Shown one piece after another: positions 38,666-63,907 of a stretch of 64,000 bases of DNA. Source of the DNA: an uncultured delta proteobacterium (lineage in GTDB: Bacteria; Myxococcota_A; Polyangia; Palsa-1104); assembly GCA_963785725.1 (NCBI GenBank), contig CAWAWS010000015.1:160001-224000 (forward strand), given 5' to 3'. The translations under genes were made by a program, and so were the position numbers. The first letter of the stretch is position 1; each line of letters begins with the position of its first letter. The notes below the pieces were generated by a model. That model saw nothing but the letters and a program-made list of their open reading frames with translations. It ran no database searches and was not told the DNA's origin.

Positions 38666-40137
<1,472 letters not shown>

Positions 40138-40141
<4 letters not shown>

Positions 40142-40785: not shown

Positions 40786-40822
40786 CCGGGATCGTCGCGG
40801 CGCGCGAAATCGGTCGGGAAAT

Positions 40823-41749: not shown

Positions 41750-41899
41750 GGTGCACCCATACAGAGCAACCGCCGCGCCAAGCTCGACAGCGCTAAGCCG
41801 GCGACTTCCTGTCTACGTCGCGGTTGCAGGTGGGGCTCGAGGCTCCACTTCGTCTCCTCGAGACCTCGGGGTTCGTGTGCGACGAAGACGCTGTCGCGC

Positions 41900-43435
41900 T
41901 CACGGCGGCGGCTGCTCGCCGCCCAGCGTCACGAAGGTGTTGCCGGCCTTTTGGAGGTTGTAGTCGGTCACGATCCAGTCGGCCGAGCGCGCCAGCCCCG
42001 AGATGCGCACTTCGTCTTCGATGCCGGCGAAGAACTGGTCGGCGGTGGCGTCGGCGGCGGCGCCCAAGCGCAAGGGCACGGTGCTCGTCAGGTCGTTCGA
42101 GGCCGTGAGGTTCGTCGGCGTGCCTTCGGGGCCGTCTTGGTAGGCGTGCAGCTGCATGCCGGCGCGGACGAACGTGACGAAGTGCCAGCTGCCGTCGGCG
42201 ATGCTGGTGCGGCCGCTGACGGAGTCGTTGCCGCTGTTCGACAGCGTCTGCGCCTGCCACGGGCTCGAGCTGTTCGCGTCGTGCAAGAAGACATCGTAGC
42301 CCTGCGTGCCGGCGTTCGTGTCGCGCTTGGACAGGAGGCGCGCGCTGCCGGTCTGTTGCGACGACTTGACCCACAAGGAGAGGGTGAAGTCGGCGGAGGC
42401 GCCGAAGTCGATGAGGGCGCTGTCGGCGACCTCGACGTAGTCGCTGGTGCCGTTGAATTGAAAGCCGTTGCCGATGGCGCCGGGCGTGATGGTCGTGCCG
42501 GTGAGCGTGCCGGTGTGGCCGCCCGTCGTGCTGTCGCTCGTCGCCGTCGCGGCCGCGGCGTTGAGGTGCCAGACGGCGCGAAAGTGGCTGTCCCAGACGT
42601 TGGCGGCGACGGGCGAGCCGGGCGGCGTTGCGTTGCCGTAATAGAGCGTGAGCACCGTGTCGTTCGAGGCCGCGGCCGTGTTCAGCGCCGGCACGCGCAC
42701 CCACGCGACGAGCACGCCGGCGTTGGGATCGTAGCGCTCGATTTCGTAGTCGAGCAAGCAGGGCGACGCGCCGGCGCAGGTCGCGCCCGTGGCCGTGAAG
42801 CGCAGGTCGCTGCCGTCGGCTTTGGCGACGTGACCGCCCGGCGCCGCTTGCAAGCCGGGATCGCTGACGGCGACGAGCAGCGGATAATTGGACAGCGTCG
42901 CCGCGCCGTCGGATGAGCTGACGCCGCCTTTGGCGATGGTGATCGTGCGCGAGTAGGCGTTGGCGACGATGGGAACGGCGGTCATGTCGACGCTCGGCAT
43001 CGACAGATCGTGCGGGAAGTTCTCGCCCATGTCGTCGAGCGGCGGGCCGCCGTCGTCGACCGCGACGGTGCCGGGCACGATGTCGGTCGAGATGTCGAAG
43101 ATGTGATGGGCGGCGATGTCGCCGGCGGCGACCTTGGCGTTGCCGACGGTGCTGCCTTTGTCGAGCGCGACGACGAGGAACGTGGTGACGCCGGCGTTAT
43201 CGGGCAGCTCGGCCAGCAGCGTCACGGGCCACTTCAACGCCGGACCGCCGCTGCCGACGGGCAAGACGTGCACGGCGCTGCCGATGGTCATCTCGGCCGT
43301 GATGCGCACCTGGTCGGCGACGACGTCGTGGCTGTTGGTGATCGTCAGGAAGACGCCGGTCGTATGATCGCACGCGGCAACGGTGGCAGCGACGGCGAAG
43401 AGGAGCGCGTAATGGGCGGCGGTGGCCCGCGTCAT
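41900..43435 (-). CDS. Lipoprotein with DUF2341 and LamG/concanavalin-like domains
   Basis: Lipobox VAAC. YPLLV, DGSDLRF, YEIE..WVRVP..LYYGN, VWHL, FNG..DY, WHFV, DEVRIS..RSADWI. Confidence 0.85.
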   Translation of the reverse strand: MTRATAAHYALLFAVAATVAACDHTTGVFLTITNSHDVVADQVRITAEMTIGSAVHVLPVGSGGPALKWPVTLLAELPDNAGVTTFLVVALDKGSTVGNAKVAAGDIAAHHIFDISTDIVPGTVAVDDGGPPLDDMGENFPHDLSMPSVDMTAVPIVANAYSRTITIAKGGVSSSDGAATLSNYPLLVAVSDPGLQAAPGGHVAKADGSDLRFTATGATCAGASPCLLDYEIERYDPNAGVLVAWVRVPALNTAAASNDTVLTLYYGNATPPGSPVAANVWDSHFRAVWHLNAAAATATSDSTTGGHTGTLTGTTITPGAIGNGFQFNGTSDYVEVADSALIDFGASADFTLSLWVKSSQQTGSARLLSKRDTNAGTQGYDVFLHDANSSSPWQAQTLSNSGNDSVSGRTSIADGSWHFVTFVRAGMQLHAYQDGPEGTPTNLTASNDLTSTVPLRLGAAADATADQFFAGIEDEVRISGLARSADWIVTDYNLQKAGNTFVTLGGEQPPP

Positions 43436-43512
43436 CGCGAAACAATAGCACGCACCGGCGCGTCGCTCTTGTCTTGCCGACGAGGTCGACGTGATAATGG
43501 AGCGCCCGCGCC

Positions 43513-46042
43513 ATGGCTCACCTGTCCGACAGCATCGTCGCCACCTTCACGGCGGGACAGGCGACGGCCGACGAAATCGAAGAGGTCGAGACGCATTTGG
43601 CCGGCTGTGCCGATTGCCGCGAGCTGGTGGCGCAATTGGCGGGCCTGCAGTCGCCACCGCCGTCCGATCACACGCTCTTGACGCCGCGTCCCGAGCACCC
43701 GCCGTCGCTGGCGGACGACGATGATGATGACGACGACGCGCCGCGCCGCAAGCGCCCACAGCCGACGCTGCCGCCGGGCACGATCCTGGCCGAGCGCTAC
43801 CGCATCGTCCATTTCGTCGCCCAGGGCGGCATGGGCGAGGTCTACGCCGCCGAGGACAACGAGCTACGCGAGACGCTGGCGCTGAAGATTCCCGCGCGCG
43901 GCGCCGTCGCCGACACCGATCTCTTGGCGCGCCTGAAGCGCGAAGTCTTACTGGCGCGGCGCATTGCGCACCCCAACGTCTGTCGCATCTTCGACGTCGG
44001 CTTTCACCGCGACGGCGCGCGTTCGATCGTGTTCTTGACGATGGAGCTGCTCGAAGGCGAGACGCTGGCCGCCAAGCTCCGTCGCGACGGCGCGCTGCCG
44101 GCCAAGGAGGCGCTGCCGCTGGCCGCGCAGCTCGTCGCCGGCTTGGCCGCCGCGCACGACAACGGCGTCATTCACCGCGACTTCAAGAGCAACAACGTCA
44201 TCCTCGTGCCCAGCGACGGGCCGGCGCCGCGCGCGGTGATCATCGACTTCGGCTTGGCCCGCGGCGAAGGCGGGCTCGACGCGTTCTCGCTCGGCTCGAT
44301 GTCGCGCGCGCTCGTCGGCACGCCGCACTATCTGGCGCCCGAGCAGCTGCAAGGCGCGCCCGCCAGCGTCGCCACCGACATTCACGCGCTCGGTGTCGTG
44401 CTCTTCGAATTGGTGACCGGGCGCCTGCCGTTCTCGGGCGCGACGCCGCGCGAGGCGGCCATGCGGCGGCTGCAAGAAGAGGCGCCGCGCGCGCGTTCGC
44501 TGGTCCCGCAGCTGAGCGCGGCCTGGGACGACGTCATCGCGCGCTGCCTCGAGCGCGACCCGGCGCAGCGCTTCGCCGACGTGCGCGCGGTCGGCAAAGC
44601 GCTGTCGCGACGACGCTGGCGGCCGCGACCGGGCTGGCGCACGGCGGCGAGCCTCTGCGGCGCGCTGGCGTTGGCGTGGGCGGGCACGGCGCTTTGGCAC
44701 GAGCGCGAGCGGGCGGCGGCGGCGCGACCGCGGCCGTCGCTGGCGATCGTCGACGCGGCCTTGTGGCGCGACGACGCGCCGTGGACGACGACGGCCGTCG
44801 CCGATGCGCCTGACCGCCGCCCTGGCCGCCGACGGCGACGTGCGCCTCGCCGACGCCGACGCGGTCGTGGCAGCGGCGGCGGAGCGGCGTGGCGACGGCG
44901 CGAGCGGCCTGCCGGCGTTGGCGCGGCGGCTCCATGTCGATCGTGTGGCGCTCGTCGACGCGTCGTTGGGCGAGCACGGGCGCATGCATGGCGAGGTGGC
45001 CTTGTGGTCGGCCGATCCGGCGCAGTCGCCGCGGCTGCTCGGCGAAGACGGCACGTTCGACGAGATTTCGGCGCGGCTGCGCGGCCAGCTGCGCACGGCG
45101 CTGCAGCGGCCCGCGCATGACACGACCGCGCCGCGCCATTTCGAGCCCGAGCGGCTGCAGCTGGCCGCCGAAGCCACGCGCCGGCAGCGGCGCGGCGACG
45201 ACGCGGGCGCCGTCGATCGCTGGCGGCGTGCGCTGGCGTCGGGCGCGCTCGACGCCGACTGGGGCGGCGCGCTCGCCCAGGCGCTCGACCGGCTCGGCTT
45301 TGCCGCCGCCGCGCGCCAAGAGCGCACGCGAGCGCTGGCCGTCGCCGAGCCGCCGCGTCTGCGCCGCCGCTTGACCGCCGATGCGGCGCGCGCCGACGGT
45401 CAATGGGCACAGCTGGCGACGATCGCGCGCGCCGCCTGGGCCGAGCACGACGACGACACGATGGCCGCCTTGGTGCTGCTCGAAGCCCAACGCGCGCTCG
45501 GTGACGTCGCCGGCGCGCACGCGACGCTGGCTCGTTTACGCGCGGCGCCGGCCGCCGAACGCGACGACGTGGCGCTCAATCTCGCGGCCGCGCGCCTGGC
45601 GCTCGCGACCGGCGAAGCGACGACCGCGCGCGCGGAAGCCGCCGCCGCCGCAACCGCCGCGCGCCGCGAGGGCGCGACCGCGCGCCTCGCCGACGCCCGC
45701 CGCCTCGAGAGCGCCGCGCTCTTGGCCGGCGGCGCGCCCGAGCCGGCGCGCTCGGCCGCCGAGGAGTCGCTGGCGCTGGCCGAGCAGCTGGCCGATCCGC
45801 TGCGCATCAGCGACGCCTTGGCGACGCGCGCGCTCGTCGAGATTCAGTCGGGCCAGCTCGACGCCGCCCGCGTGTCGCTGGCCGATGCGCTCGACCGCGC
45901 GCGCACGCTCGGCCAGGCCGAGCGCATGGCGCGGCTGCTGCTCGACCTGGCCGCGGTCGCGCGCCGGCAAAACCGCCCCGACGACGCCGCCCACTGGCTC
46001 GACCAATGGCGCGCGCTCGCCGCCGCCCGCAGCACGCCATAG
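43513..46042 (+). CDS. Ser/Thr kinase with N-terminal zf-HC2 (anti-sigma-like) zinc finger and TPR-like C-terminus (frameshift near 44803)
   Basis: HLAGCADC, GGMGEVY, HPNVC, HRDFKSNN, DFGLA, GTPHYLAPE, TM, then Ala/Arg-rich helical repeats in the 44804 frame. Confidence 0.88.
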
Positions 46043-46054
46043 CGGCACCCGCGC

Positions 46055-46070
46055 TGAGGCTGGCAGCCAC
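46055..46070 (+). promoter_or_regulatory. Putative enhancer box TGAGGCTGGCAGCCAC
   Basis: Identical 16-mer at 55234-55249. Palindromic core GGCTG-N-CAGCC. Confidence 0.65.
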
Positions 46071-46145
46071 ACGGTTGACTGGGAGAAGACACCCCCGACG
46101 ACCCTTCGCGTTTACGTAACTCGGCGTACGACAAAGGTTTGCGAT

Positions 46146-46161
46146 CGGCGCGCGTTTTGCT
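46146..46161 (+). promoter_or_regulatory. Putative sigma54 promoter of the pilin-HINT gene
   Basis: CGGCGCG-CGTT-TTGCT (GG-N10-GC), followed by GGAGG at 46174. Confidence 0.65.
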
Positions 46162-46184
46162 CTTGGGCAAGCCGGAGGGTTTGC

Positions 46185-48056
46185 TTGACCAGATCAACAC
46201 GCATTCGGCGCTCTTCGCGGGGTGCCTCGGGGATCGAATACGTCATCGCGCTGGTGCTCGTCTGCATGACGGTGATCGTCGGCTATCGCGCGTTCGGCAA
46301 GCGCGTCCGCTGCCGCATGGGCCTGGCCACGTCGGCGATGGCGCTCGACGGCAGCAAAGGCGAGAGCTGCGACGACGACGACGGCGCGCTCGCGCAGAAT
46401 GGTCCCTCCGGCAACGGCGGCAACAGCAACGGCCCGGCCGGACCGTCGGTCAGCGTCGAGTGCGAGCCGTGCAAGGTCAAAGGGCCCAACGGCGAGCCAG
46501 GCTGCTTCGTCGCCGGCACCAGCGTCATGACCGAGGCTGGGCCGCGTCCGATCGAGACGATCGCCGTGGGCACGACGGTGTTGACGCGCGATCAGCTCGG
46601 CGGCGAGCTGGAGTGGCGACCGGTCTTGCGCACCTTCGTTCACGACGTGCATGCGCCTCTGGTGCGCCTCACGGTCGCGACCGCCGAAGGCGTCGAGGAC
46701 ACGCTGGTGGCGACCGCCAATCATCCGCTGCAGAGCGACGAGCGCGGCTGGGTCGCCGCGGGCGAGCTGGTGCCCGGCCGCGACCACCTCCTCGATGCCG
46801 ACGGCGAGCGGCTCGCGGTGCTCGACGGCGAGACGCTGTCGAGCAACGAGCGCGTCTACAACTTCGAGGTCGAAGAGGCGCACACCTACTATGTCGGCCG
46901 GCTGCGGGTCTGGGCGCACAACGATTGCACCAAGCTGCAGCCGCCGTCGGCGGACACGAACACCGGACCGACCGTCTTGCCGCCGACGCCGGGGCCGACG
47001 CCGTCTACCACGACGACGCCGCCGCCGTCGACGACGCCGACGACGACGCCGACGCCGTCTACCACGACGACGCCGCCCCCGCCGCCTTCGTCGTCGACCG
47101 GAACGACCGGCGAACGGAACGGGTCGAATCATCAGTATCCGCCGGCGCCGGCCACCACCGGCGGCGGGTCGGGCGGCAACGGTCCCGGCGGCAGTGGCTC
47201 GGCCGGAAGCGGCGGCTCGGGTGGCGGCAAGTCGAGCCCGAGCCAGACGGCTGAGAAGTACACGGGCCTCGGTCAGAACGGCATCGACGTGCTCAACGGC
47301 GGCTTCGACGCGGCGAACAAGGGCGGCAACGTGGTCGGCCAGTCCAGCTCGATCACCCAGGCCATCGGCGGCGGCCTCGGCCTCGCGAATCAGGGGCTCG
47401 GTCTCTACAACCGGCCCAAGCCCAATCCGTTGAACCCCGGCAATCCGCCGCCGCCCATCGACAAGTGGGGCTTGGCGGGCGACGGAATCGCCAACGGCGC
47501 CGACGTCGTCGGCGGCATCAGCGGCGCCGTGGGTGGCTTCACCGGCAACTCGCAGGCGTCGACCATCGGCAGCTGGGCCAGCAGCGTCGGCAACGGCGTG
47601 TCGTCGCTCAACGGATTCCGGCAGGCGTGGAACTCGTGGAACGACGGCGAGCGGCGCGAGTTCATCAAGTATCTGATCGGCGCGACCGCCGACGGGTTCG
47701 GCTCGGCGCAGAACGCCATGCAAGCGCTCGGTCTGGCCGGCACGACGCAGTCCAACCTGCAGATCACGTCCGGCGTCCTCGCGATCATCGCGGCCGGGCT
47801 CGAGCCCGACGGCGTGCTCGCCACCTGGTTCAACAACGGCATGAACGCGTGGCGCGGCAACCAGCCGCCGCCGCCGCCTCCGCCGACGCCGAACCCGGTC
47901 GGGCCGCCGCCGATTTCGCTGACGCCGCCGGACAGCCCGCCGCCGGCGCAGCTGGGACCGCCCGATCCCAACCATCTCCAGCCGCCGCCGGTGAACAACG
48001 ACCCGGGCAACACGCCGCGGCCGCCACCGACGATCATCATCACGCCGCCCAACTAG
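46185..48056 (+). CDS. Flp-type prepilin - HINT autoprocessing domain - Gly/Pro-rich C-terminal cargo (623 aa)
   Basis: TTG start with GGAGG RBS. Basic leader then G|ASGIEY and a hydrophobic helix. HINT from CFVAGT (46503) through T.NHP, GWV.A.EL, VYNFEV..HTYYV to AHN (46922). Confidence 0.88.
   Translation: MTRSTRIRRSSRGASGIEYVIALVLVCMTVIVGYRAFGKRVRCRMGLATSAMALDGSKGESCDDDDGALAQNGPSGNGGNSNGPAGPSVSVECEPCKVKGPNGEPGCFVAGTSVMTEAGPRPIETIAVGTTVLTRDQLGGELEWRPVLRTFVHDVHAPLVRLTVATAEGVEDTLVATANHPLQSDERGWVAAGELVPGRDHLLDADGERLAVLDGETLSSNERVYNFEVEEAHTYYVGRLRVWAHNDCTKLQPPSADTNTGPTVLPPTPGPTPSTTTTPPPSTTPTTTPTPSTTTTPPPPPSSSTGTTGERNGSNHQYPPAPATTGGGSGGNGPGGSGSAGSGGSGGGKSSPSQTAEKYTGLGQNGIDVLNGGFDAANKGGNVVGQSSSITQAIGGGLGLANQGLGLYNRPKPNPLNPGNPPPPIDKWGLAGDGIANGADVVGGISGAVGGFTGNSQASTIGSWASSVGNGVSSLNGFRQAWNSWNDGERREFIKYLIGATADGFGSAQNAMQALGLAGTTQSNLQITSGVLAIIAAGLEPDGVLATWFNNGMNAWRGNQPPPPPPPTPNPVGPPPISLTPPDSPPPAQLGPPDPNHLQPPPVNNDPGNTPRPPPTIIITPPN
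46994..47077 (+). repeat. 30-bp direct repeat (54-bp period) encoding the Pro/Thr linker
   Basis: GCCGACGCCGTCTACCACGACGACGCCGCC at 46994 and 47048. Confidence 0.8.
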
Positions 48057-48129
48057 ATCTCATGCCGGCCGGAACGCGCGCAAGGCACGCGTTGACAGTC
48101 GCACGCCTTCGCGATCACACTTGGGTCAC

Positions 48130-49482
<1,353 letters not shown>

Positions 49483-49540
49483 ATCGGCTGACGCGTCCGC
49501 CGTCGCGCGCGCCCTGCGGCGCAAGTAAACGGGTGTTTAC

Positions 49541-50999
49541 TTAGGCCAGCGGCTCGTGGCCGAACAGGCGCAACAGCCAGTGCAGCCAGCGCGGCCAGCG
49601 GCTCGGTGGCGCGCGTCGCGACAACACCGTCACCTGCGGCTCGAGCGGCCGGCTGCTGCGTGGCGCGTCGATGCGCGTCGGCTCGGCCTCGTCGTGCATC
49701 CCGATGTCGTCGAGCTTGGGCGGCGCGCCGAAGCCGAGCGGCGGCCCCGGCTCGTGCAGCGGCGACGGCTCGCCCGTGACCGTCGGCTCGTACTCGGTGC
49801 CGAGCGGCGGCGCCTCTTGAATCATGCTCAGCTCGAAGCGCATCGCGTCGTTGTCCTTCGACGGATCGATCGGGAGCGCCGGCTGCGATGATCGAGTGAT
49901 CGGCGGTCTCTTCGTCCTGCAGCAGCTGCGGCTCTTCAGTGTCGCTGTTGTACGTGCCCGAGCGGTCGGCGTCGTGGCGCTTCTCGAGCTCGTCGAGCAC
50001 GAAGCCGGTGAACGCCTCGCCGCCCGAGTGCTGCGCCGCGCGCCAGGCGTCGACCGTGAGCGCGAACAGCTCGCGCATGTAGCGCGCCAGCCCGACCGGC
50101 GACACCGGCAGCTTCTGCTCGCGCGCGAACGACTCCAGCGCCAGCTGCAGCTCTTCGGCGGTCTGAAAGCGATCTTCGACGCGCAGGCTCAAGCCCTTCA
50201 TCAAGATCGCCTCTAACGCTGGCGGATAATCGGGCTCGATGCTGCTCGGCTTGGGCACGTCGGCGTTGGCGACGGCCTTCAAGAGGCCGAGCGGGCTCTT
50301 GGGATCGAAGAGGCGGCGGCCCAACGTCAATTCCCACAAGACGATCGAGACCGAGAAGACGTCGGAGCGGCGATCGATGGCGCCACCCAAGCACTGCTCG
50401 GGCGACATATAGGGGATCTTGCCTTTGATGGTGCGGTTGCGCGTCTCGATGAGGCGGCGCGCGGCCTTGGCGATGCCGAAGTCGACGACTTTGACGCTGC
50501 CGTCGTACGTGACCGAGATGTTGTGCGGCGAGATGTCGCGATGGACGATGTAAAGCGGCTGCCCGTCGAGCGCGACCCGTTCGTGCGCATAATGCAGGCC
50601 GGCGCACATGCCGAGCCCGATCGACAGCGCGTGCTCGAGCGGGATGCGCACGTTCTTGGCCTGCGCGTGCTTCATCAGGCGCGCGACGTCTTCGCCGTGG
50701 AGGTACTCCATGGCGATGTAGTAGCCGCCGTAATCCTCACCGAAGTCGTAGGTCTGCACGATGTTGGCGTGCTGCAGCGTCGCCGCCAGCCGCGCCTCGT
50801 CGAGGAACATGGCGATGTACTTTTGATACGTCGCCAGCTGCGGCCGCACGCGCTTGATGACCACGAGCCGCTCGATGCCGACGAGACCGGTGGCGCGCGC
50901 CAAGAACAGCTCGGCCATGCCGCCTTGGGCCAACGGCCGCAGAACTTCGTACTTGCCGATACGGGCCGGCACCGTCGACTGACCGGTGGTCACCGTCAC
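49541..50999 (-). CDS. Ser/Thr protein kinase (probable frameshift near 49860)
   Basis: GGMAEL, IKRVRP, HANIV, HRDISPHN, DFGIAK, GKIPYMSPE, DRRSDVF. The acidic Thr-containing tail continues in the 49541-49843 frame. Confidence 0.9.
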
Positions 51000-51151: not shown

Positions 51152-51385
51152 TCAGTGCGACTGGCTGCAGACGAGGCCGATGCAGCCGTCGTCGGCAGGC
51201 TTGAGCTGCGTGTTGCTCGAGCCGGTGCATTCGGACGCGTGGTCGCCCGCCGCCATCTTGCAGCGCGCGATGCGGCCGAACTCGTAGACGACCTTCAAGC
51301 CGGCGATGGCGATGAACATGACGACGATGATCCACTCGACGGCGGCGGCGCCGCGCGTGCGGGCACGGAGCTGATGACGGGCCAT
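51152..51385 (-). CDS. Flp-like minor pilin with four Cys (77 aa)
   Basis: MARHQLRARTRG|AAAVEW, hydrophobic helix, then FGRIARCKM. GGAGG RBS. Confidence 0.75.
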   Translation of the reverse strand: MARHQLRARTRGAAAVEWIIVVMFIAIAGLKVVYEFGRIARCKMAAGDHASECTGSSNTQLKPADDGCIGLVCSQSH

Positions 51386-51387
51386 GC

Positions 51388-52266
51388 TCAACCTCCCTTG
51401 GCGATGACGGCCAGGTCGACTTTCATGGGGTCGACTTGATCGATCGAGAGGATGACGGTGCGCGCGCCCTGGTCGAAGCGCATGGTGACGCTGGCGTTGG
51501 AGCTCTTGGCGAAGCGCGGATCCTCGACCCAGTCGTGCTGCTTCATGGCGAACGCCAGCTGCGTCGCGACGCCCGAGACCGAGCCCTGTCCTTCGTAGAC
51601 GCGCGTGCTCCACGGCTTGCCCTTCTCGTCGAGCGCCAACACACGCTGCAGACCGGGGAGGCGCGGCACGTTGGGGATGTCGCCGCCGTCGACGTCGACG
51701 CCGTGCGGCGGCATCAGCTTGTCGAGCGAGAAGCGCGTGTCGGTCCACAGCGTCAAAAAGCGCGTGCCGCCGCCCGGCTCTTTGTGCCACTGGACGAAGC
51801 GGACTTGGCCGATGTCGCCGATGCGATGGCTCTTCAAGAACTTGAGGTAGCGATCTTTCAAGCTCGCCAGTGACAAGTCTTTGCCGAAGTCGAAGGCCAC
51901 GAGGCCGCCTTCGTCGTCGGTGCCGAAGGCCAGCTCGGTCGGCGGCGCCTTCTTGCCCGTCTGCGCCGCGATCTTCCGCAGCGCGTCCTGCGAGCTCGCA
52001 TATTGATCGACGTAGAAGTCTTTGACGCGCGCGCCTTGGTGCGGCGTCGAGCCCACGGCCACGTGCAAGAGCTGACCGTTGATGGCGACGGTGCGCGGCT
52101 CTTCGGTGGTGCGCTTGTCGTCGAGATAGGGCGCCATGTTCTTGCCGAAGTTCAGAAAGCCGTCGAACACCGAGCCTTCGGCGGGGCGCGGCGTCAAGAC
52201 GAGCGCGGCGATGGGCGCGACCGCCGCGATGAACGTCGTCAAACGCAAGATCGGCTTCCACCTCAC
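51388..52266 (-). CDS. Uncharacterised exported protein in the pilin operon
   Basis: Signal peptide, globular composition, translationally coupled to its neighbours. Confidence 0.75.
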   Translation of the reverse strand: MRWKPILRLTTFIAAVAPIAALVLTPRPAEGSVFDGFLNFGKNMAPYLDDKRTTEEPRTVAINGQLLHVAVGSTPHQGARVKDFYVDQYASSQDALRKIAAQTGKKAPPTELAFGTDDEGGLVAFDFGKDLSLASLKDRYLKFLKSHRIGDIGQVRFVQWHKEPGGGTRFLTLWTDTRFSLDKLMPPHGVDVDGGDIPNVPRLPGLQRVLALDEKGKPWSTRVYEGQGSVSGVATQLAFAMKQHDWVEDPRFAKSSNASVTMRFDQGARTVILSIDQVDPMKVDLAVIAKGG

Positions 52267-53932: not shown

Positions 53933-53933
53933 G

Positions 53934-54533: not shown

Positions 54534-54607
54534 GGGCGGCTCCGTTCCGAAGGCGCGACGGTCTCCCGTCGCGCCTTCGTGGCGAGCGTACGGTTGCTGG
54601 CTCGTTG

Positions 54608-54826: not shown

Positions 54827-54852
54827 GGTCGTTTCTCCTGGTTGTGTGAAAT

Positions 54853-55032: not shown

Positions 55033-55045
55033 GTTCCCTGGCCTT

Positions 55046-55061
55046 ATCAAGTCCGATGCCA
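55046..55061 (-). promoter_or_regulatory. Putative sigma54 promoter of the pilin operon
   Basis: TGGCATC-GGAC-TTGAT on the minus strand. Confidence 0.55.
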
Positions 55062-55138
55062 AGTCGAATCTCCGCGGCTGCCGTGAAAGCGGGGTGAAAA
55101 TGGGCCCGATTTCGCCCGAATTTCGAGAGACTCGCGAT

Positions 55139-55264
55139 GGGGTTTTTCCCCCTCGGGCCCGAGGCTGGCAGCCTCGGGGCCGTTTGCGGATGCGCTTGCG
55201 CGGCAAGGGCCCGGGGGATTTCCCCCTCGACCATGAGGCTGGCAGCCACCCGAGACTGCCAGCC
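55139..55264. repeat. Two 35-bp imperfect direct repeats (74-bp period), each ending in GAGGCTGGCAGCC, plus an inverted half site
   Basis: GGGGTTTTTCCCCCTCG-GGCCC-GAGGCTGGCAGCC (55139) and GGGGGATTTCCCCCTCG-ACCAT-GAGGCTGGCAGCC (55213). CTGCCAGCC at 55256. Confidence 0.8.
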
Positions 55265-55334
55265 CCGTGCCGGAACTCCGCGCGGGACGTGGACCTCGCG
55301 GTCGAAGCCGCATCACGGACCGCTACATAGATAG

Positions 55335-55350
55335 TGGCCCCTCTCTTGTA
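55335..55350 (+). promoter_or_regulatory. Putative sigma54 promoter of the cpaB operon
   Basis: TGGCCCC-TCTC-TTGTA (variant -12). Confidence 0.45.
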
Positions 55351-55400
55351 TTGGCACTCGAGCCAACGGAGCGCGGCAACGGCCGCGAAGTGTGGGGACC

Positions 55401-56176
55401 ATGAAGAAGCGTCTATTGATTGCCGTCGCCTTTGCGATCGTCTCGATGGTGTGCGGCTACATGTATATCGACGGCCTCGGGGCCGCGACCACCGGCGGCC
55501 GCAAGGTGCCGGTGCTGGTGGCGGCGGCGGAGATTCCGGCCGGCTCGCGCATCACGAAGGAGATGCTCGGGGTGCGCGAGATCCCCGAAGCCTACGTCCA
55601 TCCCGAGTCGATCACGGCCGGGCCGGCGGAAGAGGCGCGGCTCATCGGCCGGCCGCTCTTCGCCAAGCTCGCGCAAGGGCAGCCACTTTTATGGAGCGGC
55701 TTCGATGTGCAGAAGGCTGGGCCGCAGAAGCTGTCGGCCGGCATTCCGCGCCACAAGCGCGCGCTCACGCTGCCCATCGATCTGCAGGGCGGCTTCTCGG
55801 GCATGTTGCGCTCGGGCGACCACATCGACGTGCTCGGCACCTTCACCCAGGCGGCCAACCAGTCGCAGACGGTGACGCTGCTGCAGAACCTGGCGGTCTT
55901 GGCCGTGGGCGACATGCGCGGTGATGCCGAGGGGCCGACGCGCGGCTTCAACAGCGTCACCCTGGCCGTCGACCTCGACGAAGCCGAGCTGCTCGTGTTC
56001 GCGCAGCAGCGTGGCGCGCTCAGCTACGCCTTGCGCTCGGAAGGCGACTTCGAGACGGTGGCCGACATCACCGAGAAGAGCTTCGGCGACGTGCTCGACG
56101 TGCATCGCCGCCAGGCCGAGTACAAGCGCAACGCGGCTCCGTCGGCGGCGCCTGCCGCTCCGCGAGCGGGTGGCCA

Positions 56177-56180
<4 letters not shown>
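55401..56180 (+). CDS. cpaB: Flp pilus assembly protein CpaB/RcpC
   Basis: TM, SAF domain VLVAA.EIPAG, RALTLPI, GDHIDVL, LLQNLAVLAV, VTLAV, ALRS. Confidence 0.93.
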
Positions 56181-57946
<1,766 letters not shown>

Positions 57947-58034
57947 GCGAGCGTAAGCGAGAGAACGTGAGCGTCCGGCCCGTAGGGCCAGCGGGTCGAC
58001 TGGCTTGTTCACGCTGCACCGACAAGGTGCACCG

Positions 58035-58892
58035 ATGAATCCGTCGATTTGGCTGTTACTCATGTTGGCGACGCTGGGCCTGTCGGTGTTCGGCCTCGTC
58101 GTGTTCGGCGGTCCCATCGTCGTCGCCTTCTTCGAGAGCCTGTGGGCCAAGTACGCGCGTTGGGCCGGCGGCGAGCTGAAGGTGCTGCACATGCCGATGA
58201 CGCCGGCCGCCTTCTTCGGTCGCCACGTGCTCGTCGTCCTCGGCACGATGTCGGTCGGCCTCATGATGACGACGCCGTGGAAGACCGCGATGCTGATGGC
58301 CGGCGCCGCGATCTCGCCGATCTTTTGGTTCAAGCGGCAGCGCTTCAATCGCCAGCAAGCCTTCAACGAGCAGCTCGATCCGGGCCTGCAGCTGATGGCG
58401 AACTCGGTGTTGGCGACGCAGAACCTCGTCGACGGCTTCGAGTCGCTGGCGAAGTACGGTCAGCCGCCGCTCAGCCAAGAGGCGGAGCTGTTCGTCAAAG
58501 AGCTGCGCATCGGCAACAGCATCGACGAAGCGATGGCCAACATGGCGCAGCGCTGCCACAACCGCAACGTCGACTCGGTCATCACGGCGCTCGCCATCGG
58601 TCGCCGCACCGGCGGCAACTTGCCGAAGGTGCTCGAGTCGACGGCCAAAGTGTTGCGCGAGACGATGCGCATCGAGGGCCTCATCGCCTCGAAGACGGCC
58701 GAGGGCAAGGCGTCGGGCGTCATCATGGCGGCGCTGCCGATCTTCTTCGCCGTCGTCATGTCGGTCGTCGATCCCGAGTGGATGGCGCCGCTCTACAACG
58801 ACGTCATTGGTAACTGCATCCTGGCAGGTGTCCTCGCGATGACGGTCGCGGGCGGCATGCTGATCCGCAAAGTGTCGACGATCGATGTTTAA
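58035..58892 (+). CDS. tadB: TadB (T2SSF) platform protein
   Basis: FNEQL..L, PPLSQE, TGGNL, TM helices. Confidence 0.9.
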   Translation: MNPSIWLLLMLATLGLSVFGLVVFGGPIVVAFFESLWAKYARWAGGELKVLHMPMTPAAFFGRHVLVVLGTMSVGLMMTTPWKTAMLMAGAAISPIFWFKRQRFNRQQAFNEQLDPGLQLMANSVLATQNLVDGFESLAKYGQPPLSQEAELFVKELRIGNSIDEAMANMAQRCHNRNVDSVITALAIGRRTGGNLPKVLESTAKVLRETMRIEGLIASKTAEGKASGVIMAALPIFFAVVMSVVDPEWMAPLYNDVIGNCILAGVLAMTVAGGMLIRKVSTIDV

Positions 58893-58921
58893 CCGTCGTC
58901 TCGAAATCGTGGGTGAACGTC

Positions 58922-59857
58922 ATGGGTGAGCTCCTGCAAAGCTTGACGACGAATCCGTCGCTGTATTGGCTCTTCGGCGCCATCGTGTGTATGGGCGTGG
59001 CCGCCTTCGTCATCGTCATGGCGGCGGTGCCGAAGCCGCGCGCGCTGACGCACCTCATGGGCTATCGCGCGACGGCACGCCGCGAGGGCCTCGAGCAGAA
59101 CCAGTTCCTGAAGATGGCGTGGCCGCTCGTCGAATTGGGCGCGCAATATTCGTCGGGAATCGCCATGCCGGAGTGGCGGCAGAGCATGGCCAAGCTGCTG
59201 CGCGACTCGGGCGCGCCGCTCGGCCTCGACGTCGACGAGCTGGTCGGCGTCATCTTCACCAGCACAGTGGCGCTGCTCGGCCTCGCGTTCGTGGTGGCGC
59301 AGCTGCGCGGCTTCGGCTTCGGCATCTACATCTTGGCGGCGTTCATCGGCGTCTGCTTGCCGTTCATGTGGCTGAGCGAGCAGGGCAAAGAGCGCTTCAA
59401 GTCGATCAACCGCGGCCTGCCGCAGGCGCTCGACCTCGTCGTCATGGCCATGGGCGCCGGCCTCGACTTCACCGGCTCGTTGCGCAACGTCGTCGAGCGC
59501 TGGACCGACAAGAAGGACCCGATGTTCCTCGAGCTCAGCCGCTTCTTGCACGAGCTCAGCCTCGGCAAGACGCGCCGCGAGGCGCTCGAAGACTTGGCCG
59601 TGCGCGCGCCCACCGAGCTCGTGCGCACCTTCGTCGCCAACGTCGTGCAGGCCGAGCAGCGCGGCACGCCGCTCGTCGAGATCTTGGCGATTCAGGCCGA
59701 CGTCGCGCGCACGCGCCGCTTTCAGACGGCCGAGAAAATAGCCGGTCGCGCCGGCGTCATGGTGCTTCTGCCGCTCATGTTAATCTTCATGGCAACCATC
59801 TTGGTGCTCTTCGGTGGTCTCATCGTCAAGGGCATCCGCGGGGAGCTCACGTCGTGA
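58922..59857 (+). CDS. tadC: TadC (T2SSF) platform protein
   Basis: LPQALDL...AGL, GKTRREAL, QAEQRGTPL, AEK.A, LPL. Confidence 0.9.
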   Translation: MGELLQSLTTNPSLYWLFGAIVCMGVAAFVIVMAAVPKPRALTHLMGYRATARREGLEQNQFLKMAWPLVELGAQYSSGIAMPEWRQSMAKLLRDSGAPLGLDVDELVGVIFTSTVALLGLAFVVAQLRGFGFGIYILAAFIGVCLPFMWLSEQGKERFKSINRGLPQALDLVVMAMGAGLDFTGSLRNVVERWTDKKDPMFLELSRFLHELSLGKTRREALEDLAVRAPTELVRTFVANVVQAEQRGTPLVEILAIQADVARTRRFQTAEKIAGRAGVMVLLPLMLIFMATILVLFGGLIVKGIRGELTS

Positions 59858-60783
59858 CGCCTGAACGCGCAGTCCCGGCGCCGGCCGTCGTGCCTTCGGT
59901 GCCTTTCGAGGTCCACGTCGGCACCGTCGACGGACCGATCCGCTCGTACCAGTTCGACGCCGAGCGCATCCTCATCGGCCGCGCCAGCGACGTCGATCTG
60001 CGGGTCGCGCACTCGGCGATGGCGCGCCATCAGTTCATCATCGAGCGCATCCTGCTCGACGGCGGACCGGCGCGCTTCCGCATCGTCCTCGTCGGCGGCA
60101 CCAACCCGACCTATCTGAACGGGCAGCCGGCCGTCGAAGGCAGCTTGCAGCCGGGCGAGGAGATCGCCGTCGGACCGCTGCGCATCTCGGTGCACTCGCC
60201 GAAGAAGCGCAAAGCGGCGGCCAAGGCCTCGGGCGGCGTCCGCGAGAAGGTCGTGCTCATCGCCGGCATCCTCGGCATCGGCCTCGTCTGCTGGTGGATG
60301 TTCGGCGACTCGGATCCGCCGCCGCAGGTGAACCCGGCCGAAGTCGACGCGCCCCTGTTCCATTCGCTGCCGCCGTTGTCGTGCCCGACGTCGGACGCCT
60401 GCGCGGCGCGCGCTCGCGAGCAGTACGCCAAAGGCCGGCAGTACGAAGACCTCGTGCAAGGCGACATCGGCAACCTGTATCGCGCGTCGATCGCGTTCGC
60501 CTACGCGGCGCAGCTGCGGCAGGCGTCGAACCAGCCGATGCCGGAGATCGCCGACGCCACCGGGCGCGTCGATCGCGACGCGCGCAAGGCGCAAGAGATC
60601 CTCGAGGACGCGCGCTTCCAGCTGCGGCGCGCGCTCGCGGCCGGTGACGGCGACCGCACCGCGCATTCGCTGGCGGTCATTCAGCAGCTCGTGCCCGAGC
60701 CGGGCCATCCGATTCGGCTCGGCCTCGACAAGATTCGCCGCGACCTGGCCAAGGACAAAGACAAGGACAAGGACGATAAATGA
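59854..60783 (+). CDS. FHA-TM-helical periplasmic protein
   Basis: GTG overlaps the tadC stop. IGR...ARHQ...NPTYLNG, TM, then CxxxxxC and TPR-like helices. Confidence 0.8.
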   Translation: MTPERAVPAPAVVPSVPFEVHVGTVDGPIRSYQFDAERILIGRASDVDLRVAHSAMARHQFIIERILLDGGPARFRIVLVGGTNPTYLNGQPAVEGSLQPGEEIAVGPLRISVHSPKKRKAAAKASGGVREKVVLIAGILGIGLVCWWMFGDSDPPPQVNPAEVDAPLFHSLPPLSCPTSDACAARAREQYAKGRQYEDLVQGDIGNLYRASIAFAYAAQLRQASNQPMPEIADATGRVDRDARKAQEILEDARFQLRRALAAGDGDRTAHSLAVIQQLVPEPGHPIRLGLDKIRRDLAKDKDKDKDDK

Positions 60784-61892
60784 GCCACGGTCCGCAGCGC
60801 ATCCCGGACGCGATCTTCCAGCAGACGCTGGTCGGGTTCCTAAAGCCGATCGAGAAGTTTCTGGCCGACGATCGCGTCTCGGAGGTCATGATCAACGGGG
60901 CGCGCGAGATCTACATCGAGCGCGGCGGCAAGCTGGAGCTCTCCGGCGCCGAGTTCCCGTCCGACCACGCGCTCGAGACGGCGGTGCGCAACATCGCGCA
61001 GTTCGTCGGCAAAACCGTCGACGCCGAGCGGCCGATCTTGGACGCGCGCCTGCCCGACGGCAGCCGCGTCTGCGCCGTCTTGCCGCCGGCCGCGCGGCGC
61101 GGCATCACCGTCTCCATCCGCCGCTTCCCGAAGTCGCGCCTGACGGTGCAGGATCTCGTCAACTACGGCGCCGTCTCGGAAGGCGCGCTGGCGTTCTTGA
61201 AGCTGTGCGTCGAGATGAAGCGCAACATCCTCGTCGCCGGCGGTACCGGCTCGGGCAAGACGTCGCTGTTGAACGCGCTGTCCTCGTTCGTGTCGGCGGA
61301 CGAGCGCGTCGTCGTCATCGAGGACTCGTCCGAGGTGCAGCTGCAGCAGCCGCACGCCGTCTACTTGGAAGCGCGCCCGCCCGATCACAAAGGCCAGCAC
61401 GCGGTAACCATCCGCGACCTCTTGCGGGCGACGCTGCGACTGCGCCCCGACCGCATCATCGTCGGCGAGTGTCGCGGTGGTGAGGCGCTCGACCTCGTGC
61501 AGTCGATGACCTCCGGCCACGGCGGCTCGATGTCGACCGTCCACGCGACCCATCCGCACGACACGGTTCAGCGTTTGGAGACGTTGTGCCTGATGTCGGA
61601 GGTGGAACTGCCCTTGCATGCTTTGCGCGGACAAGTGGCCTCCGCCGTCAACATGATCGTGCAGACGAACCGTCTCAACGACGGCAGCCGCAAGATCACC
61701 GACATCGTCGAGTGCCGCGGCCTCGACGCCAAAGGCTTCTACGATCTCAATCCGCTGTTCGAGTTCCGCCAGACCGGGGTCGATCCGAAGACGAGCAAGA
61801 TTCGCGGCGCGTTGGTCGCGACCCGCAACCCGGTCAGCTTCGCCGAAGAGCTGGAGGGCCACGGCGCGACGCTGCCCGAGGAGATGATGTAA
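60780..61892 (+). CDS. tadA: Second CpaF/TadA ATPase (no FHA)
   Basis: VSEVMING, PILDARLPDGSR, GGTGSGKTS, LRPDRIIVGECRG, SGHGGS..TVHA. Confidence 0.95.
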   Translation: MSHGPQRIPDAIFQQTLVGFLKPIEKFLADDRVSEVMINGAREIYIERGGKLELSGAEFPSDHALETAVRNIAQFVGKTVDAERPILDARLPDGSRVCAVLPPAARRGITVSIRRFPKSRLTVQDLVNYGAVSEGALAFLKLCVEMKRNILVAGGTGSGKTSLLNALSSFVSADERVVVIEDSSEVQLQQPHAVYLEARPPDHKGQHAVTIRDLLRATLRLRPDRIIVGECRGGEALDLVQSMTSGHGGSMSTVHATHPHDTVQRLETLCLMSEVELPLHALRGQVASAVNMIVQTNRLNDGSRKITDIVECRGLDAKGFYDLNPLFEFRQTGVDPKTSKIRGALVATRNPVSFAEELEGHGATLPEEMM

Positions 61893-63907
61893 TGCAGGAC
61901 GAAGAAGAAAAAACGTCGATGTTTCGGCAGAATAAGCCGATCGAGCCGGAGCGCACCGTGGTCGCGGCGCCGCGTCAGGTGGCGCGCCTGAAGGCCACGC
62001 TCGAAGACGGCATGCAGACGTTTTTGCCGCTCACGTCCGCGCCCGTGACGATGACGATCGGCCGCGATCCGTCGTGCGGCTGGTACCTGCAGGACTTGAG
62101 CGTCTCGCGCATTCACGCCTCCATCCGCTGGAGCGGCGTCGCCTTGTCGATCGAGGATCACGGCTCGAGCGGCGGCACGTTCGTCGCCAACCGCCAGGTG
62201 GGGACCACCCCTTGCCTGGTGAGGCCGGGCGACTCAGTCCGGGTCGGCGACGCCATCTTCGTCCTCGAGCTCACGAGCGGCATCGCGTCCAAGGATGTCG
62301 AGCAGACGCGCATGGTGCCGAACCCGTCGCCGATGTCGTACGCGGTGACGCCGGCGCCGTCGCGTCATCAGAAGCCGGTGGAGATTCCGCTCGGCACCTC
62401 GGCCGACGACGAGCGCACGGCGTTCTCGTCCGTCGCCGCGCCGCACGCGCGAGAGGGCCGTCAGGCGGCGCACGACGAAGAGGAGCGTACGGCGTTCTCG
62501 AAGGTGGCGACGCCGGCGCGCGGGCAGCGGGCGCACGCCGAGCTGCCGTCGATCGCCGCGCTCGCCGACGAGGAGAAGACGGCGTTTCAGGTCGAGCTGC
62601 CGAACGTCGTGGTGGCGTCGGACGCGACGGAGTCCGAGGTCGAGCTGCCGATCGCCGAATCGCGGCCGCAGCGCGTCGCGCCGGCCAAGCCGGTGGCGCA
62701 CGCCAAACCGGCCCCGAAGCCTGCGCCGCCGGTGCAGCAGACGCGGCCGACCACGCCGCCGAAGGCGATCCCGGCGGTCAAGCCGGCGCCGGTCAGGCCG
62801 GTCGCGCAGCCGAAGCCGGTCGCGGCCGAGCAGCAGACGACCGAGGCCGAAATTCCGCTGCCGGAAGCGGCGCCGTGGAGCAAGCCGTCGAGCGAGCAGA
62901 CGAAGACGGCGGCCGAGCTGCCCTTGCCGGGCGCACGCGCGACGCAGCCGCGCACCGAAGCCGAAGTGCGGCTGCCGCCCGAGCAGGCGCGCACGGCGAC
63001 CAAGACGCTGCCCGCCCATCAGCTGCCGACCGAGGCCGAGATTCCGCTGCCGGAAGCCAAAGCGCGCGCGCCCTTGCCGAAGACGGAGGCCCATATTCCG
63101 CTTCCCGCCGTCGCCGCCGCTTCGCGGACGGCGTCGACGGAATCGACGGTGGCGCCGGCTTCGCCGATCGCGATTCCGGTGCGCGCGCCCGATCACGAGC
63201 CGCTCGTCTACGTGCCCGAGAGCGACGTGCTGGCTCCGACGGAGGTGACGCGCAGCTGGGCCGTCGAGACGGCGCTGGCGAAGCCGAAGGAGGGCCTGTT
63301 CGGCGCGCGTCGCGGCACCGTGAAGTCGGGCATGCCGGTCAAGAAGTCGGCCGAAGGCAAGAGCGCGATCGGCAAGCTGGCGCAGCTGGCCAAGGGCGCC
63401 GCCAAAGGCGCCAAGACGACCGCCAAGACAGCGAAGCCGTCCCAGGCGGAGTCGACGGCGAAGACATGGACGTTGTCGAGCCAGCGCAAGCGCATCTTGC
63501 TGCTCGCGGGACCGGCCCTCTTGGCGATCGTCACCTCGGCGTCGGCGTGGATGCAGGCGCCGGCGGACGCGGCGAGCGAGGCCAAGCCGGCCGGCGCCAA
63601 GCACGCCAAAGCGCATCCGGCGAACGGCGCGGCGGTCGCGAACGGCGGCGCGGCCAACGGCGCGGCTGGCAATGGAGCCGGCGGCGACGGCAACGCGCAG
63701 CCCGCGGATCCGACGGCGGCGGTGGCGCCGGCCGCGGTCGCGCCCGTCGATTCGGCCGCGCGCGACGAGCTGCTCGCCGGCGCCATTCGCGCCTACAGCG
63801 ACGGCAATCGCGCCGAAGCGTTGAACATCTTCCGGCGCATGGGACCGAACGATCCGACCGGACGCGCGATGGTGCACATCATCACGCTGCAAGCCGAGGG
63901 ACAATAA
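61892..63907 (+). CDS. FHA protein with long Thr-motif repeat region and C-terminal TM
   Basis: ATG overlaps the stop. IGR...VSRIHA...DHGS.GGTFV. ExTAF and TEAEIPLP repeats. TM near 63500. Confidence 0.85.
   Translation: MQDEEEKTSMFRQNKPIEPERTVVAAPRQVARLKATLEDGMQTFLPLTSAPVTMTIGRDPSCGWYLQDLSVSRIHASIRWSGVALSIEDHGSSGGTFVANRQVGTTPCLVRPGDSVRVGDAIFVLELTSGIASKDVEQTRMVPNPSPMSYAVTPAPSRHQKPVEIPLGTSADDERTAFSSVAAPHAREGRQAAHDEEERTAFSKVATPARGQRAHAELPSIAALADEEKTAFQVELPNVVVASDATESEVELPIAESRPQRVAPAKPVAHAKPAPKPAPPVQQTRPTTPPKAIPAVKPAPVRPVAQPKPVAAEQQTTEAEIPLPEAAPWSKPSSEQTKTAAELPLPGARATQPRTEAEVRLPPEQARTATKTLPAHQLPTEAEIPLPEAKARAPLPKTEAHIPLPAVAAASRTASTESTVAPASPIAIPVRAPDHEPLVYVPESDVLAPTEVTRSWAVETALAKPKEGLFGARRGTVKSGMPVKKSAEGKSAIGKLAQLAKGAAKGAKTTAKTAKPSQAESTAKTWTLSSQRKRILLLAGPALLAIVTSASAWMQAPADAASEAKPAGAKHAKAHPANGAAVANGGAANGAAGNGAGGDGNAQPADPTAAVAPAAVAPVDSAARDELLAGAIRAYSDGNRAEALNIFRRMGPNDPTGRAMVHIITLQAEGQ

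Follow-up and report, generated by a model that had tools for sequence, protein, structure and literature searches.

HINT domains are known from polymorphic toxin systems, in which a constant N-terminal trafficking part is followed by HINT, a variable toxin, and downstream immunity genes (PMC3482391). In the accessible part of that survey, the routes covered are T2SS/Sec, T5SS, T6SS, T7SS, PVC, PrsW, and MuF, and the terms "pilin", "Flp", "prepilin", and "type IV pil" have no occurrence in 300,000 of its 354,187 characters. The pilin-HINT family examined here has the same layout and, judged on that part of the survey, shares with those systems the toxin families Ntox16, Ntox21, Tox-PL, ART, HNH, and barnase. 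On the same basis it differs in that a type IV pilin forms the trafficking part, most members carry no RHS or filament stalk, and immunity genes are absent from many copies.

The second close system is Kil of Myxococcus xanthus, a Tad machine with an FHA-fused ATPase, FHA proteins, and two gene clusters, whose Flp major pilins and TadE/F/G-like minor pilins are encoded by dispersed, partly redundant genes (PMC8460266, PMC12075869). All of these traits recur here. According to PMC8460266 the Kil toxin is still to be discovered, and PMC12075869 only proposes effectors associated with the Tips. These Tips are KilLMN trimers without HINT, and neither "hint" nor "intein" occurs in PMC12075869, whereas in the present family the cargo, as read from the genes, is covalently fused to the pilin. 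Export of a protein by a type IV filament through a minor pilin is represented by the toxin-coregulated pilus (TcpB/TcpF) and the T2SS pseudopilus, as far as these are cited in PMC12075869; there the cargo is separate and docked non-covalently, while the pilin-HINT cargo is fused and would be self-released. Finally, Flp pilins are named among the carriers of ARC (CD38-fold) toxins, and a Pendulispora protein is listed, in the accessible part of PMC12605009, where Flp occupies one clause and HINT, Tad delivery, the family, and its regulation are not discussed; which of its proteins is the Flp fusion can only be surmised. No paper describing pilin-HINT toxins was found in a search that left most subscription journals outside its reach. 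The sequence-only reading knew of no characterization of this architecture, and its view holds apart from this passing mention of Flp-linked ARC toxins in the accessible part of PMC12605009.

The window analysed is a stretch of 64,000 nucleotides, and the gene of interest occupies 46185..48056 on the plus strand, encoding 623 aa from a TTG start. The order of the protein is a Flp-type prepilin helix, a Cys-rich linker, an intact PT-HINT domain, and a cargo of 377 aa. The basic class III leader peptide covers residues 1-13 (46185..46223) and ends in a Gly that is nearly invariant in alignment A3; the junction reads G13|ASGIEY. The mature pilin helix, residues 14-52 (46224..46340), has E5 and Y6 in place, reaches a Kyte-Doolittle 19-mer maximum of 2.28, aligns with Tad-locus pilins, and is predicted by AF2 with a 35-row alignment as a single helix at residues 16-52. 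The leader, cleavage motif, and hydrophobic helix proposed earlier are therefore all found in the translation, the hydropathy profile, and the structural model, and the pilin part is entirely helical, as in Flp/Tad pilins. Among family members, G-xxxx-E-[YWF] is present in 63/85 and G-xxxx-E-Y in 61/85. The length of 623 aa departs from the 50-80 aa of classical Flp, and the protein is therefore no classical major Flp but at most a Flp-headed minor pilin. A flexible Gly/Ser linker follows (46341..46502; low pLDDT at 67-98). Its cysteines C62, C93, and C96, together with C43 within the helix, are invariant across the six paralogues of the genome and likely form two disulfides.

The HINT domain, residues 107-246 (46503..46922), runs from CFVAGT to AHN and retains C107, T177-x-x-H180, and H245-N246, with Asp at position +1. 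Pfam PF07591 matches with an E-value of 9.8e-18 (65 bits; cut-off 27.7). The fold is predicted with pLDDT above 90, and its top match is the bacterial intein-like (BIL) domain 2lwy (E 3.6e-12, TM 0.88 over the target, 35% identity), similar in fold and catalytic residues, although 2lwy is a protease module only. Across the family, the catalytic residues are kept in 85/85 (C1), 84/85 (TxxH), and 82/85 (HN). A complete HINT domain of 140 aa ahead of a 377-aa cargo, as first noticed, is thus borne out. The profile check suggested with it succeeded for PT-HINT and failed for Flp_Fap, which gives no match to the window protein in Pfam. The same profile detects one paralogue below its cut-off (E 1.4e-6) and exceeds the cut-off in 1/85 relatives, with several others below; the bona fide major Flp of one tad operon likewise falls under it.

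The gene is concealed in a longer ORF of 891 aa, as the sequence-only reading stated. The 5' portion of that ORF (45381-46184) has a GC content of 0.59/0.87/0.81 per codon position, which rules the ORF out as a true gene; this part is the shadow of a TPR gene in another frame. The start is placed at TTG 46185 on this account, because the product from another assembly (P0002, 99.5% identical) begins at the same residue, and because 24 nt separate the TTG from a sigma54-like promoter before it; the GGAGG ribosome-binding site (46174..46178) lies 6 nt 5' of the TTG. In soil metagenome X1, third codon positions account for 19/24 of the best-supported differences within the gene and 10/13 of those within the cargo, and two indels in the cargo linker are both in frame. 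These differences show that the cargo reading frame is under purifying selection. An allele from which the entire gene (46185-48056) is missing also exists in the X1 comparison.

Six HINT genes were found in the genome, each with a Flp-like head before its HINT domain and each with a different cargo. They are dispersed, and 5/6 lie far from the tad locus. As a new finding, these six genes and the Tad pilin operon have in common a putative palindromic enhancer and a sigma54-like promoter, as judged from upstream sequence. The palindrome, of 6-N5-6 form, was recovered without a prior motif in 6/6 paralogue upstream regions (IC 123.5 versus a null of 105.3+/-4.1, maximum 115.3, n=60). The copy at 46055..46071 (plus strand), 130 nt before the start, scores best of the 5 sites of at least 10 bits in the window and may be the site of a sigma54 enhancer-binding protein. 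The -24/-12 consensus of sigma54 promoters is GG-N10-GC, and an element of this type is present at 46147..46160 (plus strand). Such elements sit 27-40 nt before the start in 6/6 paralogues (IC 107.4 versus 92.9+/-4.6); this motif alone stays below the null maximum of 109.1, so some null sets are not beaten. The divergent Tad promoter region (55047..55267), kept out of motif training, contains a sigma54-like element at 55047-55060 (minus strand) and palindromes at 55160, 55234, and 55251. Among 487 paired motif matches genome-wide, the held-out gene for a giant low-complexity Flp ranked 6 and the Tad pilin operon ranked 22. Near the pilin genes of relatives, the palindrome was not recovered in most cases.

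The Tad locus extends over 51152-63907. A neighbouring Tad pilus had been proposed, and the locus is indeed in the window, but it is separated from the Flp-HINT gene by 3.1 kb and is not adjacent. On the minus strand, the pilin operon closes with a short Cys-bearing Flp pilin (51152..51385), which consists of this head module alone, lacking both HINT and cargo, and matches the head profile with E 2.9e-22, a profile that includes this pilin. It also comprises an accessory gene (51388-52266) with a homologue in another tad operon, three TadE/F/G-like minor pilins (52263-52772, 52772-53932, and 53934-54533; Pfam TadE and Tad), a pilin that is probably the major Flp (54608-54826), and another short pilin (54853-55032). 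On the plus strand, 55392..63907 encodes the Tad/Kil core by Pfam: cpaB, an FHA-cpaF ATPase, tadB, tadC, FHA proteins, and a second ATPase. Secretin and prepilin peptidase genes are on contig C4. An FHA domain at the N-terminus, a trait reported for Kil (PMC8460266), is present in the window CpaF, and the Kil gene signature of that paper, by which the assignment is made, is complete: FHA-fused CpaF, CpaB, TadB/C, secretin, peptidase, and FHA proteins. Directly downstream of the Flp-HINT gene is an FHA-sigma54 activator gene (48121..49482, plus strand), not an immunity gene. It was considered as a candidate regulator; a specific role is unsupported because its paralogues are many (18 covering the FHA domain among the 60 matches listed) and the pilin-operon activator of relatives is closer to other copies.

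The cargo of the window copy consists of a Pro/Thr- and Gly/Ser-rich spacer (residues 247-354, 46923..47246), whose length differs between strains, a core of about residues 355-556 (47247..47852), and a proline-rich tail (47853..48053). The core is composed of Gly/Ala/Asn-rich amphipathic helices with one weakly hydrophobic segment; these helices are AF2 predictions of low confidence (mean pLDDT 37 in a single-sequence run). Pfam at E up to 1 and NCBIfam left the cargo unmatched, a PDB sequence search returned just one spurious repeat match, and none of the three revealed a toxin family. Two homology searches (342-1091 aa; 362-2000 aa, top 8000 candidates) yielded only the same protein. In the ESM Atlas, the best neighbour, at 0.85, is unnamed and gave nothing usable, and the colicin and glycine zipper neighbours at 0.78 are at chance level. 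No immunity gene was found beside the window gene, nor an evident one for any of the six copies. The core is possibly membrane-active.

Pilin-HINT fusions make up 85 of the top 150 library matches, and 96 with a deeper profile. After exclusion of 3 cargos shorter than 30 aa, the remaining 82 fell into 62 clusters, while the N-terminal part formed one, and the nearest HINT neighbour has the same cargo in just 12/85. The polymorphism suspected for the regions after HN is hence plain, and the invariant C-termini named as evidence against the earlier reading were not encountered: one genome alone holds six different cargos, and relatives hold many toxin families. Pfam cut-offs for toxin families are exceeded by 22/85 cargos, not counting a coiled-coil match (P0110) and families overlapping HINT; these are ADP-ribosyltransferases, HNH nucleases, RNases, deamidases, M91 peptidases, and glycosyltransferases. 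Three further matches that exceed the cut-off are to GGDEF, Stv, and DUF4116, which are not toxin families, and 53/85 cargos have no Pfam match. Several relatives have adjoining immunity genes: Barstar after an RNase, Imm74 after an ARC-like cargo (L216, P0122), Imm6, Imm49, and CdiI_N after Ntox21. In two complete genomes, 5/14 copies have a Pfam-named immunity gene, a frequency that, like the Tad linkage figures, is based on about 30 loci. With a constant N-terminus, variable C-termini, toxin-family cargos, and PT-HINT directly before the cargo, the family is almost certainly a polymorphic toxin system.

The suspected tie of the fusions to Tad was also seen: CpaB is present in 17/17 carrier genomes tested (G493, its head cut by a contig end, was excluded) versus 148/301 genomes of the class. 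This co-occurrence is weaker than the count suggests, because Tad is found in half of the class and the carriers are related. Family f13 has CpaB in 0/46, and there 0/9 HINT matches extend into the pilin part. Two fusions lie inside tad operons: TadE-HINT-Ntox21 with CdiI_N between prepilin peptidase and cpaB (G258), and Flp-HINT-Ntox16 with DUF6714 at the operon end (G303). All 14 copies of G375 and G432 are more than 100 kb from cpaB; a copy in G366 that lies 14 kb from cpaB, its head not verified, was left out of the linkage count. Five close relatives have Tad yet no such fusion.

In this large family from predatory myxobacteria of soil, a pilin is joined to a domain that cuts itself and to an exchangeable payload, in many cases a recognisable toxin encoded beside its antidote, which suggests that Tad pili bring toxins to neighbouring cells. 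Because of the polymorphic toxin cargos, immunity genes, CpaB co-occurrence, pairs in tad operons, and common promoter motifs, the family is taken as polymorphic toxins for which Tad, of Kil type, is quite probably the delivery route. The full account, a Tad-pilin-targeted, HINT-released toxin family with this gene as a member, is likely. The earlier interpretation as a Tad-delivered effector is supported, and its steps would be as follows. The precursor would enter the inner membrane facing the periplasm and lose its leader of 13 residues to prepilin peptidase. Assembled as a minor subunit of the Kil-like Tad pilus, the Flp helix would carry HINT and cargo, joined to it by a linker that disulfides stabilise. 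On contact with a target cell, HINT would cut after His-Asn, possibly also before Cys107, and free the cargo. The six scattered genes would be turned on jointly with the pilin operon through the common sigma54 enhancer system. More broadly, and with the balance leaning in its favour, Polyangia-type Tad pili may form a toxin-delivery system whose toxins are encoded as Flp- or TadE-headed pilin subunits, loaded on the filament through ordinary pilus assembly, driven up to or into a target cell, and released by a built-in intein-like protease, as a genome-wide, sigma54-coordinated arsenal. Such an arsenal may hold up to ten swappable payloads and target both bacteria and microbial eukaryotes; the source organism is presumably predatory, given its kinship.

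A different role for the pilin head would be that of an inner-membrane anchor and export signal only. HINT would then cut in the periplasm of the producer, and the cargo would never be in a filament, leaving by another path, such as a push through the secretin of Tad, the T2SS, vesicles, or outer-membrane exchange. In two complete genomes, there are also HINT-toxin genes whose hydrophobic head is truncated or is not a pilin (L211-L213), other secretins are encoded in the genome, and spontaneous cleavage is common among intein-like domains. This alternative is nevertheless improbable, as the G|xxxxE-Y assembly motif is retained in 61/85, TadE, a second pilin class, bears the same HINT-toxin within a tad operon, and regulatory motifs are common to the fusion genes and the pilin operon. 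Even more doubtful, with only a slight chance, is that the fusions are substrates of the T2SS or a type IVa pilus, two systems that likewise rely on class III leaders: such systems are encoded, with pilin and secretin genes on C2, C13, and C17, but the head resembles Tad-locus Flp (E 2.7e-11) and not their pilins (E 0.28 or worse), and operon placement and common promoter motifs favour Tad. HINT might instead serve ligation, with a Cys107 thioester joining the pilin head to a nucleophile of prey or surface, or with the head spliced to the cargo. Bacterial intein-like domains are able to splice or ligate, C1 is universally retained, and the window copy has Cys248 two residues past Asn. The unconstrained +1 residue (Ser/Thr 12/85, Cys 0/85), the His-Asn pair for C-terminal cleavage kept in 82/85, and immunity genes, which imply intracellular cargo action, make this very improbable. 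A splicing intein proper was rejected on the same +1 residues, Asp in the window copy, and on flanks that form no conserved host protein.

A more serious alternative, though still unlikely, concerns the window copy alone: the family would be toxic, and this low-complexity helical cargo would be an adhesin, spacer, or decoy on the pilus or shed from it. It lacks a catalytic family, a homologue, and an immunity gene, Flp pilins of same-genus relatives bear helical, Gly-rich extensions and lack HINT, and the genome encodes the giant low-complexity Flp. However, the slot behind an intact HINT holds toxins in relatives, a sibling with a papain-fold toxin domain is equally without an immunity gene, purifying selection acts on the cargo frame, and homology to the Gly-rich domain of the same-genus proteins was rejected (E 0.44). 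That this helical, Gly-rich cargo is toxic is slightly favoured; if it is a toxin, it is perhaps membrane-damaging.

If the Tad-delivery reading is true, the effector is the pilin itself, a direct and testable answer to Tad/Kil contact killing in one myxobacterial branch, and polymorphic toxins gain an extra trafficking route in which a type IV filament is a covalent cargo carrier. The family is also a source of dozens of payload domains that await characterization and occupy what is known to be a toxin slot. In a HINT-motif scan of genome contigs, pilin fusions account for 5/74 loci among the matches listed, and RHS toxins predominate. In a phylum sample of 401 genomes, scored at 5 candidates per genome, at least 27 had matches; within the 30 loci inspected, pilin fusions appeared only in the source genome and G258, a lower bound given 16 further matches outside this set. 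Experiments are possible because a cultured species, Pendulispora rubella, has a member, the Flp-HINT-RNase protein WP_394832720.1 (P0086).

The pilin-HINT proteins form a polymorphic toxin family that is real and widespread, though patchy in its distribution, and the gene at 46185-48056 (+) is one member. Its product is 623 aa long from a TTG start, with GGAGG 6 nt 5' of it. A basic leader ends at G13 and is followed by ASGIEY, a hydrophobic helix, a Cys-bearing linker, a PT-HINT domain at residues 107-246 (Pfam, E 9.8e-18), and a cargo of 377 aa. In the AF2 model of head and HINT, a single helix spans residues 16-52 and the HINT fold is confident, with a bacterial intein-like domain as its top structural match in a fold search. 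The 5' portion of the longer ORF enclosing the gene was rejected as coding, being the shadow of a TPR gene, and an independent database gene call begins at the same residue. The hidden TTG start with its ribosome-binding site, the basic leader and G/ASGIEY motif, the HINT domain, and the cargo length proposed in the sequence-only reading are thus all borne out.

The heads and HINT domains of the six genes in this genome were combined into a profile and searched against 1.84 billion representatives; the counts here rest on the best 150 of 1,329 matches at E 1e-30 or better. A Flp-like head precedes HINT in 85 of these 150 (96 with a deeper profile). All 85 retain C1, 84 retain TxxH, 82 have HN, and 63 have G-xxxx-E-[YWF]; the +1 residue after HINT is unconstrained, which fits cleavage rather than splicing. 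As had been anticipated, the regions behind HN are polymorphic: 82 cargos of 30 aa or longer fall into 62 clusters and only 12 of the 85 proteins share a cargo with their nearest HINT neighbor, as cargo swapping would produce. Cargo Pfam matches at E 0.005 or better were obtained for 32 of the 85; 25 lie above the cut-off, and 22 of those belong to families of toxins or effectors. The carriers with names are MAGs of Polyangiaceae, Kofleriaceae and Myxococcales, together with Pendulispora rubella. One close member is labeled Polyangia bacterium, so the host is probably a Polyangia-type myxobacterium. Two HINT domains are present in P0017, P0019, P0048, P0058, and P0126, and some of these proteins carry two tandem cargo domains. 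The cargo of P0068 is a GGDEF-like domain that could act as a signaling effector.

The host genome (8.9 Mb, 68% GC) contains six HINT domains, each preceded by a Flp-like head. The cargo of one paralogue scores right at the cut-off of a papain-fold toxin family (E 8.7e-5, 24.0 vs 24.1 bits), and a homologue of another paralogue's cargo has ADP-ribosyltransferase Atlas neighbors (0.86-0.88), which serve as a lead only. Two paralogues are frameshifted, one directly after HINT and one close to the end; indel errors of assembly are a plausible cause, since the window's ammonium transporter (29108-30472) and M13 peptidase (31986-32995) genes are also split across frames. The paralogue on contig C7 (L004:7607-9328) lies tail to tail with a group of genes that, by eye, resembles a cluster for a phage baseplate or a contractile-injection spike.

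The window cargo opens with a Pro/Thr spacer and closes with a Pro-rich tail; the roughly 200 residues between them are rich in Gly, Ala and Asn and predicted to be helical, with a single segment of weak hydrophobicity. None of the sequence, family or Atlas searches run identified it, and it matches none of the other five paralogues' cargos. Composition and position make a membrane-damaging role the best guess, at about even odds. In soil metagenome contigs of about 97% identity that span the gene, most changes fall at third codon positions and the linker indels preserve the reading frame. One contig, derived from a related strain or species, runs directly from 46038 to 48090; at this empty site both the gene and its promoter are missing. 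The gene therefore behaves as a self-contained accessory cassette.

The Tad locus (51152-63907) starts 3.1 kb downstream of the gene. Its minus strand carries the genes for Flp pilins and TadE/F/G-like proteins, and its plus strand those for CpaB, an FHA-fused CpaF, TadB/C, FHA proteins, and a second ATPase; the secretin and prepilin peptidase genes are on another contig. The FHA-fused ATPase and split arrangement resemble those described for the Kil system of M. xanthus (PMC8460266). The final gene of the pilin operon (51152-51385) encodes a 77-aa Flp without HINT, whose Cys pattern is like that of the fusion head. On either side of the window gene (38621-50999) lie genes for three Ser/Thr kinases and an FHA-sigma54 activator, possibly a phosphorylation-controlled signaling cluster beside the FHA-rich locus.

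The expected link of homologues to Tad was also supported. CpaB occurs in 148 of 301 genomes of the class and in 17/17 distinct carrier genomes tested, these being related and hence non-independent cases, with G051 represented by a head assigned by eye and a weak CpaB match. In the family f13, CpaB is present in 0/46 genomes, and 0/9 HINT matches (9 candidates scored per genome) extend into the pilin part. A copy lies 6-8 kb or less from cpaB in G540, G311, and the window genome. Counting against the link, most family copies are dispersed, away from tad loci, and the fusion is absent from five close relatives that have Tad. In G303, the tad operon terminates with Flp-HINT-Ntox16 and DUF6714. 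A second pilin class of the same design, a TadE-type minor pilin-HINT-Ntox21 with CdiI_N, is seen within a tad operon of G258 (L157:11664-13642), in the order flp, prepilin peptidase, TadE-HINT-Ntox21, CdiI_N, further pilins, cpaB, secretin, and FHA-cpaF. In same-genus genomes, Flp pilins with long non-HINT extensions end tad operons and adjoin an FHA-sigma54 activator (L164:3037-3954, L162:5706-about 6640, L163:6354-7004); the two scanned gave no Pfam match.

Immunity genes were surveyed in two single-contig genomes, G375 (10 Flp-HINT genes) and G432 (4). A Pfam-named immunity neighbor accompanies 5 of the 14 copies, namely Barstar after an RNase in four (one match just below cut-off) and Imm74 after an ARC-like cargo in one; an unnamed ORF adjoins two more, six lack an immunity gene, and one is apparently broken. 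Further genomes contribute Imm6, Imm49, CdiI_N, DUF6714, and DUF4265, the last presumably immunity-linked. The Barstar-type partners indicate that at least some cargos reach the bacterial cytoplasm. No immunity gene is evident beside any of the six paralogues of the window genome, all of which stand alone. L211, L212, and L213 of G432 are HINT-toxin genes with a non-Flp or degenerate hydrophobic head that keep the pre-HINT cysteine motif; one carries an ARC-like cargo.

Beyond the sequence anatomy, we infer every step of the most likely mechanism. The precursor would be held in the inner membrane by an anchor, its HINT and cargo parts facing the periplasm, a placement that would shield the producer and may explain the missing immunity genes. 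It would then be processed and assembled as a minor subunit, the pilus would carry the HINT-cargo subunit outward, and Asn cyclization on contact would release the cargo. This pilin-based trafficking module is new to the literature searched, which lay mostly outside subscription journals and yielded no description of pilin-HINT toxins; no pilin route is among the trafficking routes in the accessible part of a polymorphic-toxin survey (PMC3482391). The earlier view of the architecture as uncharacterized holds to that extent and is qualified by PMC12605009, whose accessible text names Flp pilins once among ARC toxin carriers.

Motif discovery on the six paralogue upstream regions, with 60 sets as the null, revealed two elements: a 6-N5-6 palindrome lying 77-183 nt upstream (IC 123.5 vs 105.3+/-4.1, max 115.3) and, at 27-40 nt upstream, a GG-N10-GC element (IC 107.4 vs 92.9+/-4.6, max 109.1) that fits the sigma54 consensus. 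At the leave-one-out scores, 0.0001-0.022 matches would be expected by chance in each upstream region. When the genome was scanned with the two matrices, 487 pairs emerged; all six training genes rank among the first nine, a giant Flp gene left out of the training ranks 6, and the Tad pilin operon ranks 22. Moreover, of the three elements in the promoter region of the Tad locus, two are near-copies, spacer included, of the elements of two fusion genes. These shared elements tie the scattered fusion genes to the pilus independently of synteny. The palindromic element was not recovered near the pilin genes of most relatives and may therefore be lineage-specific. The giant Flp-headed protein (about 1180 aa, Gly/Thr/Pro repeats, without HINT) is encoded just past the window (L006:5206-8754 (-); contig C15:225205-228786), behind a sigma54-like promoter and an exact match to the palindromic element. 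Additionally, high-scoring enhancer-plus-promoter pairs at C26:140, C27:72270, and C39:528623 precede genes of unknown function, which are possible further members of the regulon.
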